Positions 1 to 6,699 of a DNA stretch of 6,699 bases are shown piece by piece. The position numbers were made by a program, and so were the translations under genes. Position 1 is the stretch's first letter; each line of letters starts with the position of its first letter. This stretch comes from a virus (Duplodnaviria; Heunggongvirae; Uroviricota; Caudoviricetes): the IMG/VR virus record IMGVR_UViG_2529292716_000007. One strand, given 5' to 3'. A model generated the notes under the pieces. It saw only the letters and a list, made by a program, of their open reading frames with translations. It did not search any database and was not told where the DNA came from.

Positions 1-457
1 TTAAATGTCTTTCCATTCCCTCCCTCGTCCGTCACGGTATTTATCCGTCATGCTGGATGAACGATGTCCAAGGAGCGCCTGAGTGAAATCACCGCCTTTT
101 TCTGCTGAGTGCAGGCGACCGGATAAACTTCGGATTTCATGAAATGGCGGTGGGTCACCTTCCCATTTCAATCCGGATGTGTCTCGGGCAATCCTGAACT
201 GTGCTGCGATTGTCCTGGCTGTCTTCCCTCCGAGTAACTTTTCGTTTTTACCGTTTATTTTTTTCAAGTTATCCAGTACATCGGCAAGTGTTAAATTCAA
301 TCTGGAAATCGTGGTGGGGAGAGAAATGCGAATTTTTGCCCCTGTTTTTTGTTGTTCCACGTATAGCCTGCCATCTCTTATATCCTCCCATCTCATAGCC
401 GCCAGATCTCCTTCGCGCTGTCCTGTTACCAGTGCAAGATCCATGCAAAGGCCGAAC
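1..457 (-). pseudogene. int: Lambda-family tyrosine integrase, C-terminal catalytic fragment; N-terminal part replaced by IS600
   Basis: Minus-strand ORF ends with the stop at 1-3 and a C-terminus ...HEIRSLSGRLH...LLGHRSSSMTDKYRDGRGREWKDI, closely resembling the lambda Int C-terminus (R/H boxes and catalytic Tyr in the LLGH...Y motif). The reading frame runs into the IS600 left end at 458, so the first codons of the track ORF (MSVKLRLPQ) are IS-derived and most of the N-terminus is absent. Confidence 0.8.
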
Positions 458-521
458 TGAGGTAGCCTGAGTTTAACGGACACTCCTTCCTGAAATAGAA
501 TGGCATCAGAAGGAGCTAATA

Positions 522-824
522 ATGAGCAGAAAAACCCAACGTTACTCTAAAGAGTTCAAAGCCGAAGCTGTCAGAACGGTTCCTGAAAATCAACTTTCGA
601 TCAGTGAAGGCGCTTCCCGATTATCTCTTCCTGAAGGCACTTTAGGACAATGGGTTACCGCCGCCAGAAAAGGGCTCGGTACTCCTGGTTCCCGCACGGT
701 GGCTGAACTGGAATCTGAAATTCTGCAACTGCGTAAGGCGTTAAATGAAGCTCGCCTTGAGCGAGATATATTAAAAAAAGCAACAGCGTATTTTGCACAG
801 GAGTCGCTGAAAAATACGCGTTAA
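522..824 (+). CDS. IS600 OrfA, IS3-family transposase N-terminal HTH/leucine-zipper subunit
   Basis: 100-aa ORF MSRKTQRYSKEFKAEAVR... with an HTH and a C-terminal leucine-zipper-like segment (LQLRKALNEARLERDILKKATAYF), the conserved IS3-family OrfA architecture. An A-rich SD-like stretch (AGAAGGAG) lies upstream at about 508-515. Confidence 0.85.
   Translation: MSRKTQRYSKEFKAEAVRTVPENQLSISEGASRLSLPEGTLGQWVTAARKGLGTPGSRTVAELESEILQLRKALNEARLERDILKKATAYFAQESLKNTR
773..780 (+). other. Putative -1 programmed ribosomal frameshift site (A AAA AAA G) joining orfA and orfB
   Basis: A7G run at 773-780 sits in the orfA 0-frame (TTA AAA AAA GCA). A -1 slip puts the ribosome into the orfB frame (start positions congruent to 2 mod 3). 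Position near the 3' end of orfA matches IS3-family frameshift windows. Confidence 0.6.
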
Positions 825-859
825 TCGAACAATGGCGACAACAATTTCCCATTGAAGCG

Positions 860-1678
860 ATGTGTCAGGTATTTGGTGTATCCAGGAGCGGTTATTACAA
901 CTGGGTACAGCATGAACCCTCAGACAGAAAACAAAGTGATGAGCGGCTAAAACTGGAGATTAAGGTGGCACATATCCGCACTCGCGAAACATATGGAACC
1001 CGGCGGCTCCAGACGGAGCTGGCAGAGAATGGCATCATCGTTGGTCGTGACCGACTGGCACGTCTTCGTAAGGAGCTAAGGCTACGCTGTAAGCAGAAAC
1101 GCAAGTTCAGAGCGACTACGAACTCGAACCACAATCTGCCAGTTGCGCCAAATCTGCTGAACCAGACGTTCGCTCCTACAGCACCAAATCAGGTCTGGGT
1201 GGCGGACCTGACGTATGTTGCCACACAGGAGGGATGGTTGTACCTCGCTGGCATCAAAGATGTTTATACGTGCGAAATTGTCGGCTACGCCATGGGAGAG
1301 CGCATGACAAAAGAGCTGACAGGTAAAGCCCTGTTTATGGCGCTCAGGAGCCAGCGCCCACCTGCCGGGCTAATCCACCACTCTGATCGAGGTTCACAGT
1401 ACTGCGCATACGATTACCGGGTCATACAGGAGCAGTCTGGTCTGAAAACATCAATGTCGCGTAAAGGTAACTGTTACGACAACGCTCCGATGGAAAGCTT
1501 CTGGGGAACGCTGAAAAATGAGAGCCTGAGCCACTATCGTTTTAATAACCGGGATGAAGCCATCTCAGTAATACGGGAATACATTGAGATTTTCTACAAT
1601 CGTCAGCGTCGTCACTCTCGTCTGGGGAATATCTCCCCGGCAGCCTTCAGGGAAAAATATCATCAGATGGCTGCTTAA
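860..1678 (+). CDS. IS600 OrfB, DDE transposase catalytic domain, normally made as an OrfAB fusion by -1 frameshifting
   Basis: 272-aa ORF in the -1 frame relative to orfA. It carries the DDE triad context (WVADLTY, HHSDRGSQY, ESFWGTLKNE) typical of IS3-family transposases. The frame is open upstream of the first ATG back towards the slippery site, so the biological product probably spans 522-1678 with a shift near 773-780. Confidence 0.85.
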   Translation: MCQVFGVSRSGYYNWVQHEPSDRKQSDERLKLEIKVAHIRTRETYGTRRLQTELAENGIIVGRDRLARLRKELRLRCKQKRKFRATTNSNHNLPVAPNLLNQTFAPTAPNQVWVADLTYVATQEGWLYLAGIKDVYTCEIVGYAMGERMTKELTGKALFMALRSQRPPAGLIHHSDRGSQYCAYDYRVIQEQSGLKTSMSRKGNCYDNAPMESFWGTLKNESLSHYRFNNRDEAISVIREYIEIFYNRQRRHSRLGNISPAAFREKYHQMAA

Positions 1679-1721
1679 AAAAAGAACAAATGGTAGTGTC
1701 CGCTATTGCCAGTACACCTCA

Positions 1722-2070
1722 ATTGCTCTGCGGCTTCGCTCAGAGCTGGCGTATGTTCCCGGCCTACTGATTCACACAGGTAATCAACGAAACCGGACAC
1801 CAGTTTTCGTTCGCGAGGCGTGATCGCCCCACCGACCGGAGTCCAGTAATCGAAACCCAGTTGCAGGAGTTTGAAAAAACGCTTGTGGAATGCGTAGTTA
1901 CACACACGCTTAAAGTCTGCGTGTATCCACTCACCTATTTTGATTTGATGCAGAAAATCGCAACTCTCCGGCGTCGCCGGGAGAAGTAATCCGGAAGAGG
2001 TTTGTTTGACCAGTTGTATATGTGCCATCGGCTTTCTCCGGTGGCACGGTGTTACACAGCAGGAGTTCAA
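1722..2070 (-). pseudogene. Hypothetical phage protein, 3' end truncated by the IS600 insertion
   Basis: Minus ORF whose last ~15 codons (…RCTGNSGHYHLFFF) lie inside the IS600 right end, so the native C-terminus is missing. Two candidate starts: ATG at 2070 overlapping the upstream stop as ATGA, or ATG at 2028 preceded by GGAGA at about 6 nt. No family recognised. Confidence 0.5.
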
Positions 2071-2354
2071 TCCTGCTCAAGATTGTAGATGAGTTTATTC
2101 TTCAGCAAAAGCAGAAAACCAGCCTTAAAACCAATCTCTTTCAAAACCCGTAATGATGTGACAAATTCGTCCTCACGCAAAATAAAACCGTCCGTCAGAA
2201 GTCCATTACAAAAATAAAATAACACAGCACCGCTCTTCCTTTGTTGAGATTGCAAACATCTAATGCGGCAATGGCTGACAATCGCTCCATTCTCAACGCG
2301 CACAGCATAGAGGCCATTTTCACTAAAAATTTCACGCAATTCTTCGATTTTCAT
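2067..2354 (-). CDS. Hypothetical protein, 95 aa
   Basis: ORF MKIEELREIFSENGLYAVRVENG... with an SD-like GGAAGGA about 10 nt upstream of the ATG at 2354. Its stop overlaps the next start (ATGA at 2067-2070), suggesting translational coupling. Function not recognised. Confidence 0.5.
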   Translation of the reverse strand: MKIEELREIFSENGLYAVRVENGAIVSHCRIRCLQSQQRKSGAVLFYFCNGLLTDGFILREDEFVTSLRVLKEIGFKAGFLLLLKNKLIYNLEQD

Positions 2355-2470
2355 CTTCAGAATCCTTCCAGATAAATAGCTCTCCCCTGTTCGGGGTCCA
2401 TCCCTCTTCTCCCTGCGCGCTACTTAAGTGAGTCGATTCTATCTGCGAAGGTGCGCGAATCAAATTCACC

Positions 2471-2528
2471 GGAAATAAACAACAAAAAACCCGCCGAAAC
2501 GCTGAGAGATCACAGCGATGGGCGGGTT
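2471..2528 (-). terminator. Rho-independent terminator at the 3' end of the hok transcript
   Basis: On the minus strand: GC-rich stem AACCCGCC...GGCGGGTT (plus 2488-2495 / 2521-2528) with a nested stem CGCTG/CAGCG, immediately followed by a U-tract (TTTTTTGTTGTTTATTT, plus 2471-2487). Confidence 0.6.
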
Positions 2529-2603
2529 AAGTGCGGGTGCGTTGAGGATGCCTGACACATCAGAGGTGGGCGGGGATGGGATCAGCTCCCCGCCCGGTCA
2601 CTC

Positions 2604-2759
2604 TTACTTCCTGGATTCGTAGTCTACGAAGACAGCGACCTCCGTCTGGCCGGTTCGGATTCGTACCTCACAGAGGTCTTTCCTCGTTACCAGTGCCGTC
2701 ACTATGACGGTTAAACAGATGACGATCAGGGCGATTAACATCGCCTTTTGCTGCTTCAT
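2604..2759 (-). CDS. hok: Hok/Gef-family type I toxin (small membrane-depolarising peptide)
   Basis: 51-aa product MKQQKAMLIALIVICLTVIVTALVTRKDLCEVRIRTGQTEVAVFVDYESRK: single transmembrane helix plus the conserved RKDLCEVRIRTGQTEVA Hok/Gef periplasmic motif, recalled as near-identical to chromosomal Hok proteins (HokD/RelF, HokC/Gef). AAGGAG SD lies 9 nt upstream of the ATG. Confidence 0.9.
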   Translation of the reverse strand: MKQQKAMLIALIVICLTVIVTALVTRKDLCEVRIRTGQTEVAVFVDYESRK

Positions 2760-2816
2760 AGCCTGCTTCTCCTTGCCTTTCGGCATGTAAGAGGCTAACC
2801 TACATGTGCAAAGCAT
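2604..2816 (-). CDS. mok: Mok-like leader ORF, in-frame N-terminal extension of hok (MLCTCRLASYMPKGKEKQA-Hok)
   Basis: 70-aa ORF from the track; the ML.TCR...K.KEK.AMKQ pattern resembles chromosomal MokC as I recall it. GAGG lies about 9 nt upstream. Assigning a Mok role is by analogy only. Confidence 0.5.
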   Translation of the reverse strand: MLCTCRLASYMPKGKEKQAMKQQKAMLIALIVICLTVIVTALVTRKDLCEVRIRTGQTEVAVFVDYESRK

Positions 2817-2935
2817 GAAATTGGCCTCAGATTAATGTTAAGCGTCTTGCCGGACGCGTAATGTTAACTGGGGCTTTTCTCTATCTGCCTTTTGGTGTTC
2901 ATGCCTGAAGCAGATAGCCTCAAGCACCCGCAGTC

Positions 2936-2965
2936 ATTCTACTTACCTCGCCAATATGAAATCAA
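2936..2965 (-). promoter_or_regulatory. Candidate sigma-70 promoter of the hok/mok mRNA
   Basis: Minus strand reads TTGATT (plus 2960-2965), an 18-nt spacer, then TAGAAT (plus 2936-2941). The predicted start near 2929 puts the 5' element TGCGGGTGCTTGAGG at the transcript start, consistent with the 5'/3' complementary pair noted in the findings. Confidence 0.45.
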
Positions 2966-2986
2966 TCAGAAAGGTGCCCCATAAAA

Positions 2987-3673
2987 TCACTCCTTCTCTT
3001 CTTTACCGTAGTGGAGTTGACCAATTTTGATAAGAGGGCGTCCCTGAGATTTGCGGTGTAGATTGGTATCGCGCAGAGAATACACACAGCCACAATATTC
3101 CTGCTGATAGAATTTTTCGCGCTTGCTGATTTCAATCATACGGGACGAGCCGCCCTGCTTGCGCCAGTTATAATCCCAGTACACCATGCCCGGATAATGC
3201 GCGACGGCTCGCCGCCCACAGTCGTTAACCTGCTGCATATTTTTCCAGCGTGAAATGCCCAGTGAACTGCTGATCACACTGAAACCATTTTCAGCGGCGT
3301 ACAGCGCTGTCCGCTCAAAACGCATGTCAAAACACATGGTGCAACGGATCCCTCGTTCGGGCTCCCATTCCATTCCTTTGGCTCGTTCAAACCAGTTGTC
3401 TGTGTCGTAATCAGCATCAATAAACGGCACGCCGTGTTGTTCAGCAAAGCGAATATTCTCATCCTTACGAATTAAATACTCTTTCTGAGGATGAATGTTC
3501 GGGTTGTAGAAAAAGATGGTGTAGTCGATTCCCGAGGCCTGAAGCGCCTCCATCACCTCACCGGAACATGGAGCACAGCAAGAGTGCAGTAGTAGTTTGT
3601 TTGCCCCGTTTGGGAGCTCCAATTTGGGCCGTTTGAAATCAGCAACTGTCATAAATATGTTTATTGGGGTCAT
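2987..3673 (-). CDS. DUF208/QueH-like (epoxyqueuosine reductase family) putative Fe-S protein, 228 aa
   Basis: ORF with an N-terminal [14 protein letters not shown] motif that I recall as the cluster-binding signature of the QueH/DUF208 family, plus further Cys pairs (CTMCFD, CGCVY). Assignment is from motif memory only. No convincing SD before either candidate start (3673 or 3652). Confidence 0.55.
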
Positions 3674-3792
3674 AAAAATATCAAAGAGTGTAGCATTAGA
3701 ACGGGGCTATCGGAAACAGATGTGTGACTGCTCCCCGCCCTTTCGGGTGGTCTCCTGATGATTTGAGGGTGCAGAAATCCCTCCGGTTAAGG

Positions 3793-3821
3793 ATTAAATT
3801 TTTAACAGTGCTAAATTTAAT
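3793..3821. promoter_or_regulatory. 9-bp perfect inverted repeat ATTAAATTT-N11-AAATTTAAT; candidate operator/protein-binding site
   Basis: Seen directly: 3793-3801 is the reverse complement of 3813-3821, separated by 11 bp, in an AT-rich intergenic stretch at the stop of the 3821-4234 ORF and upstream of the QueH-like gene. Confidence 0.3.
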
Positions 3822-4234
3822 TATTCAGTTCTGGATTTTGTCGCCCTGCGTATCCGCGCTTTCGCGTTACGCTCAATCTGTATCAGCTTTTCTATATTTC
3901 TCCGCCTTTCCTGTTCCTCCTGGCGCAATAGCCTTACATCATCTGCCAGTCTGGTTTCTCTTTTTGCCACAGAGAGCATCCAGTCAAACGGCTCCACAAC
4001 CGCACCGCAGATTTTACAGCGGACCTGACGCTCTTTTTCGTCAACCCGTACAGAGGCGTGATGGCAATATGGTCTTTCCGATGGCTCATAAAGAAAATTA
4101 ACCTGATTACGAGGGTCATCCTCTTTTACCGGAAATAAAACGATATTGCTTAACTCATCTTCTGGTTTTATTTCCATGCTCCTCTCCTTTGATGCGAATG
4201 CCAGCGGTAATTGAAGCCTGATAGCTAATTTCAT
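3821..4234 (-). CDS. Hypothetical small protein with putative zinc-ribbon (C-H-H...C-x2-C) and basic coiled-coil C-terminus
   Basis: ORF with an AGGAGG SD 11 nt upstream of the ATG at 4234, which directly abuts the stop of the upstream ORF. An alternative start at 4177 (MEIKPEDE...) has AAGGAG 6 nt upstream. Contains YCHHASVRVDEKERQVRCKICG followed by a charged heptad-like tail (LLRQEEQERRRNIEKLIQIERNAKARIRR). Family not recognised. Confidence 0.55.
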   Translation of the reverse strand: MKLAIRLQLPLAFASKERSMEIKPEDELSNIVLFPVKEDDPRNQVNFLYEPSERPYCHHASVRVDEKERQVRCKICGAVVEPFDWMLSVAKRETRLADDVRLLRQEEQERRRNIEKLIQIERNAKARIRRATKSRTE

Positions 4235-4657
4235 TCACAGTATCGCCTCCTGAAAATTACCCTGATAGAAAGCCAGTACACGCTGCATAGCTTCGCTCTT
4301 CCGGCACTCGCGACAGATTATATTCAGGCGCCTGTCGTAGCGGCGTATTTCTCCGTCAGGTAATGACCAGATAAGGTCCGGATCAACAACAACCGGTTTC
4401 CTCACCTTTACTCTCGAGAGTTTTTTGCGGGCGCTTTGCCAGTCCTTGCGAGCCTGTTCAGACGGGAATAAGCCGTAGCCAGAATTATATACATCACCAC
4501 TTGCGACCAGTTCTATGCATAAGCGACCGACAGACGCACGACTGATACCTGTTTCATCTGACAACTGCCGAATCGTGACCCGACCGTCCTGATGCACGAG
4601 TTCCACAATTCGCGTCTTCAGTTCTTCCCGCTGTTCGGGAGTAAAAGGTTTCGCCAT
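4235..4657 (-). CDS. Putative winged-helix DNA-binding protein, 140 aa (possibly YdaW-like)
   Basis: ORF with a strong SD (CAGGAGG) 5 nt upstream of the ATG at 4657, 14 nt after the DnaC-like stop. The N-terminal region (RVTIRQLSDETGISRASVGRLCIELVASGDV) looks like an HTH/winged-helix. Position immediately downstream of the DnaC-like gene matches ydaW in the Rac gene order; homology not verified. Confidence 0.55.
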   Translation of the reverse strand: MAKPFTPEQREELKTRIVELVHQDGRVTIRQLSDETGISRASVGRLCIELVASGDVYNSGYGLFPSEQARKDWQSARKKLSRVKVRKPVVVDPDLIWSLPDGEIRRYDRRLNIICRECRKSEAMQRVLAFYQGNFQEAIL

Positions 4658-4671
4658 AAATCCTCCTGAAA

Positions 4672-5418
4672 CTACTTAACAACCCTCGAATGGCTAACAT
4701 TCGGACGCCAGCTCTCCCAGTTAAAATTCACCCAGCGCCCGCCGTTCATGACCATGCGATCCATCACCCGCTCGCCGAGCAATGTTTTCATCACCTCATA
4801 GTTCAGGTTTGTCAGCATCCCCACGCTGCGCATCGACGCTGTCCGGCGATCAACAATCTGGTGCAGCACCACCTGCTCGTTTTTCGTCTCGCGCTGAATG
4901 CCAATTTCATCAAGAACCAGCAGATCCACTTCGCACAGCTCCCGCAAAAATTTTTCGCCTGACTGCCCGTCGTCATAGCTGGCGTGCAGGGCGCTCATAA
5001 CATCAGCCACGGTAACCACAATCACTGTCTGACCGTCTTTCAGCAGGCGATTCCCGATAGCTGCCGCTAAGTGATTCTTCCCGGTACCAGGTTTTCCGCT
5101 GAACGCAAAATTTGTACACCCGGTCATCAGTTCATCGGCGATGGATTTCGCCTGGCTTAACGCGTATCGCTGGCCGTCGTTCTGCACCTGGTAATTCGCA
5201 AACGAGCATTTACGGTGCAACGGCTGGATGCCTGAGCGATTCAGAATTTTTTCCACCCGCAACTGGCGATTCAGGCGGTTGATCTCCTCGCTACGTTTCT
5301 GGCCTTCAGCAAGTTGCCACTCGCGCCACTCCGCTACCGTTCTGAATGGGGCGGTTACATGTGGCGGGGTCAGTCGGCGGATGCGTTCCAGAACGCCGCC
5401 TGTCGCAATATTTTTCAT
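4672..5418 (-). CDS. ydaV: DnaC-like AAA+ helicase loader, prophage replication protein (YdaV-like)
   Basis: 248-aa ORF with Walker A (FSGKPGTGKNHLAAAIG) and Walker B (DLLVLDEIG), the DnaC/IstB-like ATPase fold. Length and N-terminus MKNIATG... match my recollection of Rac prophage YdaV. It follows the initiator gene with a 6-nt gap, as in phage O/P-type modules. Confidence 0.8.
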   Translation of the reverse strand: MKNIATGGVLERIRRLTPPHVTAPFRTVAEWREWQLAEGQKRSEEINRLNRQLRVEKILNRSGIQPLHRKCSFANYQVQNDGQRYALSQAKSIADELMTGCTNFAFSGKPGTGKNHLAAAIGNRLLKDGQTVIVVTVADVMSALHASYDDGQSGEKFLRELCEVDLLVLDEIGIQRETKNEQVVLHQIVDRRTASMRSVGMLTNLNYEVMKTLLGERVMDRMVMNGGRWVNFNWESWRPNVSHSRVVK

Positions 5419-5772
5419 GGTCCGTTACCCCCTGAAGCCTGGCGGGATCGCACTGTCCGGCAACGAGACGGTGTTAACCTGTCGGAGCAACGTCTCAGGC
5501 CGAACACCTTTCGGCGCGAACAGGCCCTGGTATTCATTGGCGATGCTGTGTCGAATCACCTGCTCAGGTGTAAAACCCTGCTGACGGAATTTTTCCAGTT
5601 CCCGTATCGCCCCGTTAGCGCCCTGCTCCGTTCGAATCGGTTTTCGCAATGCCTGTCTGAACCGGACCCACTCATGCCAGAGTGTTTCCGGCAACCAATC
5701 GGGCAGCTCAATAGCCTCCGGCTCGAATTTTTTAGACGCTCGTTTTTGGCGAGGGGGAGATCAGTATTTAGA

Positions 5773-5817
5773 TCTTCCTCTTCCTCTTCCTCTTCCTCTT
5801 CCTCTTCCTCTTCCTCT
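5773..5817. repeat. Hexanucleotide microsatellite (TCTTCC)7.5, i.e. (GAAGAG)n on the coding strand, encoding a poly-Glu tract
   Basis: Seen directly: 45 bp of perfect TCTTCC repeats. In the minus frame that is open across it, it reads as 14 consecutive Glu; the other two minus frames read (RG)n and (KR)n. Confidence 0.95.
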
Positions 5818-5960
5818 GGTAACGCTTTTTGATCCGTTTGTGTAACGCTGGCAGCGTTACCTTTTCGTTTCAGTTCGCGTATTTTTGTTACTCGCTCGTT
5901 TGTAACCGCCCGTTTTTTTTAGAGCTTTTTCCGTTATGACGTTCAAAGTTAGGTAGAGAA
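5818..5960. repeat. Iteron-like repeat cluster (GTAAC core, including a perfect 9-bp palindrome) adjacent to a T-rich tract; candidate phage origin embedded in the initiator gene
   Basis: GTAACGC at 5819 and 5842; palindrome GTAACGCTG-G-CAGCGTTAC at 5842-5860; TTTTGTTAC at 5882-5890; TTTGTAACCGCC at 5899-5910; then T8 and an AT-rich stretch at 5911-5960. Lambdoid origins lie inside the initiator gene as iterons plus an AT-rich region. Confidence 0.35.
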
Positions 5961-6085
5961 AGCCCTCCGTCATTTTCGACCAGCCATCCAACCTGAATTA
6001 ACGCATCAGCAAAACCAGACATAAAAGTGATGCGATCTATTGCACTTTTTGTAACGCCGCGAGCGTTACAATCTGCATTACCGTC

Positions 6086-6699
6086 TGGATTTGCCCCTAT
6101 ATTTCCAGACATCTGTTATCACTTAACCCATTACAAGCCCGCTGCCGCAGATATTCCCGTGGCGAGCGATAACCCAGCGCACTATGCGGATGCCATTCGT
6201 TATAATGCTCGAACGCCTCTGCAAGGTTCTTTGCTGCCGTTAACCCGTCTGGTTTGGGCATGATACTGATGTAGTCACGCTTTATCGTTTTCACGAAGCT
6301 CTCTGCTATTCCGTTACTCTCCGGACTCCGCACCGCCGTGTTCTTCGGTTCAAGTCCCAACATCCGGGCGAACTGGCGTGTTTCATTAGCCCGGTAGCAT
6401 GAACCATTATCCGTCAGCCACTCCACTGGAGACGACGGAAGATCGTTGCCGAAGCGGCGTTCCACCGCTCCCAGCATGACGTCCTGTACTGTTTCACTGT
6501 TGAAGCCGCCGGTAGTCACCGCCCAGTGCAGTGCCTCACGATCACAGCAGTCCAGCGCGAACGTGACACGCAGTCTCTCTCCGTTATCACAGCAGAACTC
6601 GAACCCGTCAGAGCACCATCGCTGATTGCTTTCTTTCACGGCCACTCTGCCTGTATGTGCCCGTTTCGATGGCGGTACAGCAGGTTTTCGCTCAAGCAA
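6086..6699 (-). mobile_element. IS2 (IS3 family), right-end portion; element continues beyond the window
   Basis: Plus strand from 6086 reads TGGATTTGCCCCTATATTTCCAGACATCTGTTATCACTTAACCC, the reverse complement of the IS2 right terminus (...GATGTCTGGAAATATAGGGGCAAATCCA) as I recall it, followed by the InsD coding region. Confidence 0.9.
6097..6699 (-). CDS. insD: IS2 transposase InsD (OrfB), 5'-partial at the window edge
   Basis: ORF product ...[31 protein letters not shown]...[31 protein letters not shown] matches the IS2 InsD C-terminal region from memory; stop at 6097-6099. Confidence 0.9.

Follow-up and report, generated by a model that had tools for sequence, protein, structure and literature searches.

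The 3' end of the stretch analyzed here (the window, 6,699 nucleotides of the Caudoviricetes virus record IMGVR_UViG_2529292716_000007) displays one end of the insertion sequence IS2 abutting a truncated phage replication initiator gene, with an open reading frame that runs from the first into the second. A reading of the sequence alone had proposed that the IS2 terminus supplies an ATG and possibly also outward transcription into the initiator fragment and the genes that follow it. The question raised by the locus is whether the IS2 end contributes working signals of this kind, or whether it is a passive scar. The analysis favors the second answer, to which a probability of about 0.75 is assigned: as judged from sequence, this appears to be a passive IS2 scar in a decaying prophage, the downstream genes being silent or expressed at background. 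The setting would be a decaying Rac-like (lambdoid) prophage in a Shigella sonnei-type genome, and the junction would be a scar of insertion or of rearrangement.

The element at the edge of the window is the right end of IS2. Its features are as follows.

6086-6699, minus strand: 3' 614 nt of IS2 (IS3 family), a 613/614 match to the annotated K-12 IS2A
6086-6126, minus strand: IRR, the right inverted repeat of IS2, 41 bp, ending in CA-3' at 6086 (sequence comparison)
6097-6699, minus strand: 3' part of insD (orfB), with the stop TAG at 6099-6097 (open reading frame list and translation; insD1 as annotated in K-12)

In the 614-nt nucleotide comparison the sole mismatch with the annotated K-12 IS2A mobile element is at IS2 nt 900, and IS2 copies of S. 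sonnei chromosomes match this part of the window with 100% identity. Both the identity and an IRR of the length given for IS2 (41 bp; PMC3299598) are present. The IS2 tip reads ...GGGGCAAATCCA-3' and is at window position 6086 on the minus strand, which is exactly where the homology of all relatives to the window breaks. The insD frame has the C-terminal sequence ...SDNRCLEI, followed by its TAG. IS2 continues past the right edge of the window.

The chimeric open reading frame is composed of three segments, all on the minus strand.

5888-6112: the whole chimeric open reading frame, 74 codons (open reading frame list; alignment to the intact homologue)
6112-6110: start ATG, IS2 nt 1305-1307, within insD, out of its frame, and 5' of the outward -35
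6112-6086: IS2 portion, 9 codons (sequence comparison)
6085-5915: native initiator portion, 57 codons, D49-K105 (alignment)
5914-5891: frameshifted tail, 8 codons (alignment)
5890-5888: stop codon (open reading frame list)

The proposal that the ATG lies within the IS2 terminal repeat, and that MSGNIGANP is encoded by IS2, is borne out. The ATG is 27 nt from the IS2 tip, and all nine codons, which overlap the final codons of insD in a different frame, are IS2 sequence. The open reading frame also crosses the junction into the initiator fragment, as had been stated, and is a true chimera. Codons 10-66 align with residues D49-K105 of the intact 262-aa homologue (L001:4826-5614), thus the fusion is in the native frame, and the 74-aa sequence matches the PHROGs family phrog_2509 with an E-value of 4e-27 at profile positions 49-103 of 277. 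The frame is lost at codons 67-74. This is due to the poly-A tract at 5913-5920, which has eight A residues as compared to six in the intact gene.

The presence of this open reading frame is not beyond chance expectation, since the ATG and the nine open codons are a fixed property of every IS2, the odds of landing in the native frame are 1 in 3, and two other IS2 tips compared also give outward open reading frames, of 41 aa (the S. sonnei holin site) and 68 aa (K-12 IS2A in yaiX). The native frame is long only because it was formerly a gene. A chimeric product would lack 48 residues of the initiator at the N-terminus and 157 at the C-terminus. The 74-aa open reading frame was examined for the properties of a functional gene, namely a ribosome-binding site, completeness of the domain and conservation in other genomes, and these were not found. 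Shine-Dalgarno pairing, calculated as the most stable duplex between the 20 nt preceding the start and the anti-Shine-Dalgarno sequence, is very weak at the chimeric ATG (-3.1 kcal/mol), as compared with ydaV (-10.7 kcal/mol), DUF977 (-10.3 kcal/mol) and a 137-aa gene further downstream (-10.3 kcal/mol). A predicted 8-bp hairpin, in which UGUCUGGA pairs with UCCAGACG across the junction, would sequester the start, taking in its UG together with the six bases that follow; the RNA fold around the ATG is overall no more stable than that of shuffled sequences (z -0.11), and the hairpin carries little weight. The exact 74-aa protein is absent from a collection of 15 billion proteins and is encoded on one 1.8-kb Logan contig only.

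The interrupted gene encodes 262 aa in the intact relative L001. The intact homologue is a replication initiation protein (phrog_2509, E-value = 1e-89, from PHROGs), and the C-terminal part of the initiator also matches the PHROGs 'O-like' and 'primosomal' families. Searches of the intact initiator against Pfam and NCBIfam matched no family. The IS2 tip adjoins codon 49, and the first 48 codons are absent from the window. The part that remains displays the following, all on the minus strand.

5913-5920: poly-A tract, A8, with a +2 frameshift that ends the 74-aa open reading frame (alignment)
5773-5817: GAGGAA hexamer array, 7.5 copies, in the poly-Glu linker of the initiator (TRF)
5752-5765, junction at about 5758/5759: 10-bp deletion (TCCCCCTAAA) between TCCCCCT direct repeats, giving the second frameshift (alignment)
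5425-5694: C-terminal remnant of the initiator, residues ~174-262, 89 codons (open reading frame list; alignment; phrog_6451, phrog_678 and phrog_2509)

The C-terminal remnant is in a frame that differs from that of the 74-aa open reading frame. A full-length initiator frame of ~262 aa, with the N- and C-terminal parts joined, was not found in the window, where the remnant consists of separate 74-aa and 89-aa open reading frames. The A-tract is A6 in E. coli loci with an intact gene, and A8 in the window and in the S. sonnei loci, except for A9 in strain 53G. The 10-bp deletion is common to all S. sonnei loci compared. On these comparisons, the initiator had become a pseudogene by the time IS2 came in. 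The lesions are older than IS2 because S. sonnei loci with no insertion sequence in the gene carry them too; L006 (A8) and L009 (A9) are of this type, yet both display the 10-bp deletion and the expanded A-tract.

Several other properties of this sequence may be recorded. In 53G, the ninth A restores the frame at the A-tract, which points to a slippage-prone tract. The hexamer array is perfect (TCTTCC x 7.5 on the plus strand) and varies from 3 to 8 copies among related S. sonnei loci that are otherwise nearly identical, thus it behaves as a VNTR. Palindromes of the type GTAACGC-N-GCGTTAC are found within the initiator gene at positions 5818-5861, 5885-5917 and 6049-6071. Two 20-nt copies are 90% complementary and the others are shorter or degenerate; one palindrome was flagged as a terminator-like hairpin on the plus strand. 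The GTAACGC/GCGTTAC repeats look like iterons of a phage origin situated inside the initiator gene.

The first gene that the proposed read-out would reach is ydaV, which begins 668 nt from the IS2 tip.

4672-5418, minus strand: ydaV, intact gene for a DnaC-like helicase loader, preceded by a strong Shine-Dalgarno sequence of its own (Pfam IstB_IS21/Bac_DnaA; NCBIfam PRK12377, 8e-154, and DnaC, 2e-91)

The IS2 end does face ydaV and the genes following it, as the sequence-only reading had it, all of these being on the minus strand. The ydaV, DUF977 and 137-aa genes are intact, which is compatible with continued use and equally with recent decay. In intact relatives the order is cI / cro-ydaT-initiator-ydaV (DnaC-like)-DUF977-...-QueH-hokD (L001), with the genes tightly packed and read from the cro side. 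There ydaV and its neighbors are part of the early operon on the cro side, which in the standard lambdoid layout is repressed in the lysogen. There is no particular reason to expect expression of ydaV and its neighbors in the remnant. Loss of the native promoter is plausible, since relatives keep cI and cro upstream, behind an IS600.

Only two promoter-like sites are found on the minus strand of the window. One is at 2965-2936 and precedes hok (TTGATT-18-TAGAAT); the other is at 2463-2436 and precedes a Rem-like 95-aa gene. Thus at least part of the 'accessory block' downstream does not need IS2, as these two genes each have such a site. The Hok-family toxin open reading frame at 2604-2816 is 70 aa as listed and 51 aa as annotated in relatives. 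The gene after DUF977 (3821-4234) is annotated with 118 aa in most relatives but is open for 137 aa here and in L011. The 137-aa version starts at an ATG adjoining the DUF977 stop codon and has the strong Shine-Dalgarno pairing given above; the longer start may be the real one.

Among the alternatives to a passive scar, the one that survives best, though it is considered unlikely, is read-through. Here a transcript from the IS2 transposase promoter PIRL, or from beyond IS2, would exit the right tip and provide a meaningful basal level of ydaV and the genes after it, with low translation of the 74-aa open reading frame, perhaps by re-initiation after the insD stop. IS2 is co-oriented with the downstream genes, prediction of intrinsic terminators gave none on the minus strand at 6400-5300, the insD stop follows the chimeric ATG by about 11-13 nt, and ydaV has its strong Shine-Dalgarno sequence (-10.7 kcal/mol). 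The 668-nt gap between the IS2 tip and ydaV also has no obvious rut-like (C-rich, G-poor) stretch, which leaves room for passage of a transcript and, as regards polarity, gives no argument either way. Against this, PIRL is weak and is repressed by OrfA (PMC3299598), and in an IS3 backbone outward expression could not be detected from promoters placed further than 150 bp inside the element (PMC12095673). The literature also includes polar insertions of IS2 in gal that were examined with rho mutants (reference 46 in PMC12095673). In addition, about 470 nt are untranslated after the stop of the chimeric open reading frame, and OrfAB is a rare frameshift product, hence few ribosomes get to the insD stop. 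As to what could cross the junction, there is only weak read-through of the repressed transposase transcript of IS2.

The possibility of a promoter at the terminus itself depends on the -35 sequence that the IS2 right end is known to carry in an outward orientation (PMC3219604, PMC9330008). In the minicircle junction promoter, Pjunc, the -35 from IRR is combined with a -10, TAGACT, from the left tip (PMC3299598, PMC3219604). The -35 was placed in the window from the Pjunc geometry, i.e. a -10 at the IRL tip, a 1-bp junction spacer and a 17-bp promoter spacer (PMC3299598, PMC3219604). The -35 and the hexamers that stand at possible -10 positions in the flank, all on the minus strand, are as follows.

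6107-6102: outward -35 of IS2, TGGAAA (the Pjunc -35), 16 nt from the tip (Pjunc geometry and PWM scan)
spacer 16: candidate -10 GACGGT, PWM score 2.7
spacer 17: candidate -10 ACGGTA, PWM score -8.2, 0/6 consensus matches
spacer 18: candidate -10 CGGTAA, PWM score -7.8
spacer 19: candidate -10 GGTAAT, PWM score -0.1

A correctly spaced -10 (16-18 bp) was not found in the flank. The best score there is 2.7, in a window where about 1% of all positions score at least 2, and this compares with 9.6 for TGGAAA-17-TAGACT, which was the top PWM match in an IRR+G+IRL construct. The consensus scan of positions 5300-6400 on both strands gave 0 promoter-like sites where 0.9 are expected, although simple hexamer and PWM scans can miss unusual promoters. 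No promoter-like site is present at 6086-6400, and thus no complete outward promoter was found in the IS2 end; the best minus-strand PWM match inside IS2 is 6.5, which is at the background rate. Likewise, a reporter assay of the last 150 bp at the right end of IS2 detected no promoter activity (PMC12095673). In that work this sequence was chosen as a parent for its inactivity, and it had the lowest chance of gaining a promoter (Pnew 0.02; PMC12095673). The claim that the IS2 terminus drives outward transcription is therefore not supported, given the lack of a -10 in the flank and the negative reporter result.

A hybrid promoter, in which TGGAAA of IS2 would work with a cryptic flanking -10, either GACGGT (spacer 16) or GGTAAT (spacer 19), to drive the downstream genes, is accordingly very improbable. 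It has precedent, in that the IS2 -35 together with a host -10 forms fusion promoters at ampC, acrEF and neoR, where the -10 in the flank is needed (PMC9330008); the ampC case is that of Jaurin and Normark (1983), as summarized in PMC9330008. GACGGT also retains the two most conserved -10 positions, A2 and T6. The scores (2.7 at spacer 16 and -0.1 at spacer 19) are nevertheless far below that of Pjunc, and the consensus scan found no site. IS2 junction promoters with a spacer other than 17 bp are non-functional (PMC3299598), and the 17-bp spacer gives ACGGTA, which has no consensus match. There is then no fusion promoter, in that a -10 is lacking at the required distance from the IS2 -35. Moreover, the -35 at 6107-6102 is situated 3' of the chimeric ATG. 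A hybrid promoter would initiate transcription near 6073, and the resulting RNA could neither carry that ATG nor encode the chimeric open reading frame. The two contributions attributed to the IS2 terminus, supply of an ATG and outward transcription, would thus need different transcripts.

A still less probable proposal is that IS2 brings a translation start along in its tip. On transposase mRNA that reads through, ribosomes ending at the insD stop would re-initiate at the ATG 11 nt upstream and produce a 74-aa piece of the N-terminal domain of the initiator, and this would bind the GTAACGC/GCGTTAC repeats and interfere with replication of an incoming Rac-like phage.

The junction has been found in two assemblies only, the window and the Logan short-read contig SRR6248939_70 (L003). 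The contig has 28 nt of IS2 across the same junction and differs in the number of hexamer repeats, which indicates that it is independent of the window. A megablast search of 5,426 complete E. coli genomes gave no record that spans the junction; many E. coli prophages match window positions 4600-6086, and the matches stop at 6086. An exact 25-mer search for the junction in genome and metagenome contig collections gave no matches. With the junction in two assemblies only, there is no conservation to suggest selection. A conserved, selected fusion was considered for the open reading frame and ruled out on this distribution and on its termination at an older frameshift. The least credible alternative, an assembly artefact in which the IS2 repeat was misjoined to the prophage, has in its favor that IS2 is multicopy and that the junction is missing from all ten S. 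sonnei chromosomes retrieved, but it is rejected because the independent Logan contig carries the same join, and the break is exactly at the IS2 tip, as transposition would give.

Window positions 1-6086 are ~100% identical to S. sonnei chromosomes, and the window carries a copy of IS600 (457-1722). On the sequences compared, the junction may have arisen by a deletion adjacent to IS2, of 4.6-7.1 kb, with loss of cI, cro, the early promoter and IS600; it may instead be a fresh insertion. Seven S. sonnei chromosomes (L004:884-2213, L007:3415-4745, others) have an identical and co-oriented IS2 within the holin gene, flanked by the target duplication CTTAC. The right tip of this holin-site IS2 is 4.6-7.1 kb upstream of the GACGG site, and the holin fragment ...GCAGCCTTAC is the left flank of IS2 in relatives. 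In most S. sonnei chromosomes an IS600 is located 38 bp upstream of the IS2 point of the window (L004:9301-9339, L010, others). The same ~40 bp of the initiator gene has thus been struck by two different insertion sequences in different lineages. At the other end of the window (1-2070), IS600 directly links the 3' portion of a phage integrase gene (1-483, minus strand) with a truncated DUF1367 gene (1675-2070, minus strand). The Q-antiterminator, lysis and structural regions of intact relatives are missing there, and this represents another IS-associated rearrangement.

The passive scar remains the preferred reading, and its steps can be put as follows. The IS2 right tip adjoins codon 49 of an initiator that was already dead through the +2 frameshift at the A-tract and the 10-bp deletion. 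The ATG carried by IS2 falls in the native initiator frame by chance, so that gene callers see an open reading frame of 74 codons that extends up to the older frameshift. It has neither a promoter of its own nor a usable ribosome-binding site, and its product would be a stub. The IS2 -35 is present, but with no -10 at the required distance a fusion promoter is not formed. The DnaC-like gene and those following it, which are read from the cro side in intact relatives, would most likely be silent or at background level. Of the sequence-only reading as a whole, the identity of IS2, the chimeric open reading frame and the co-orientation with the downstream genes stand; the outward promoter at the terminus is not supported.

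For annotation, an open reading frame that runs from an IS terminal repeat into a truncated gene calls for caution. The one described here is a by-product of IS2 and belongs in a pseudogene annotation; it should not be entered as a gene. As the outward signal of IS2 is only a -35 at 16 nt from the tip, a claim that the element drives neighboring genes rests on the 6-8 bases outside the tip, and in the window these bases fail the -10 test. Were the read-out true, it would be one further case of a mechanism described since 1983. The feature is an already known kind of IS scar; the IS2 fusion-promoter mechanism is real, but the -10 that defines it is not present here.

Among the closest known systems are the IS2 insertions at ampC, acrEF and neoR, in which the same right tip with its outward -35 faces host genes. 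In cases of the ampC type the host provides a properly spaced -10 and expression rises, whereas in the window no -10 is found at 16-18 bp and the nearest intact gene is 668 nt away. Pjunc has the same -35, TGGAAA (window 6107-6102). Its -10, TAGACT, comes from the IS2 left tip at exactly 17 bp, while the partner at the window junction is GACGGTAAT instead.

The replication region is comparable to the lambda-type O/P module and to the ydaU-ydaV region of Rac, where the initiator gene is likewise followed directly by a DnaC-like loader gene. The lambda origin is inside O, and the initiator gene of the window similarly contains the GTAACGC/GCGTTAC palindromes; its C-terminal part matches phrog_678, 'replication initiation O-like'. 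The difference from the lambda module is that the window initiator is truncated by IS2 and frameshifted twice, thus the module cannot initiate replication.

Other IS2 copies, for example K-12 IS2A in yaiX and the S. sonnei holin-site copy, display an outward frame with the same ATG and the leader MSGNIGANP, which continues into the flank. In the window, the leader enters the flank in the coding frame of the interrupted gene, and the open reading frame resembles a truncated initiator and not random sequence.
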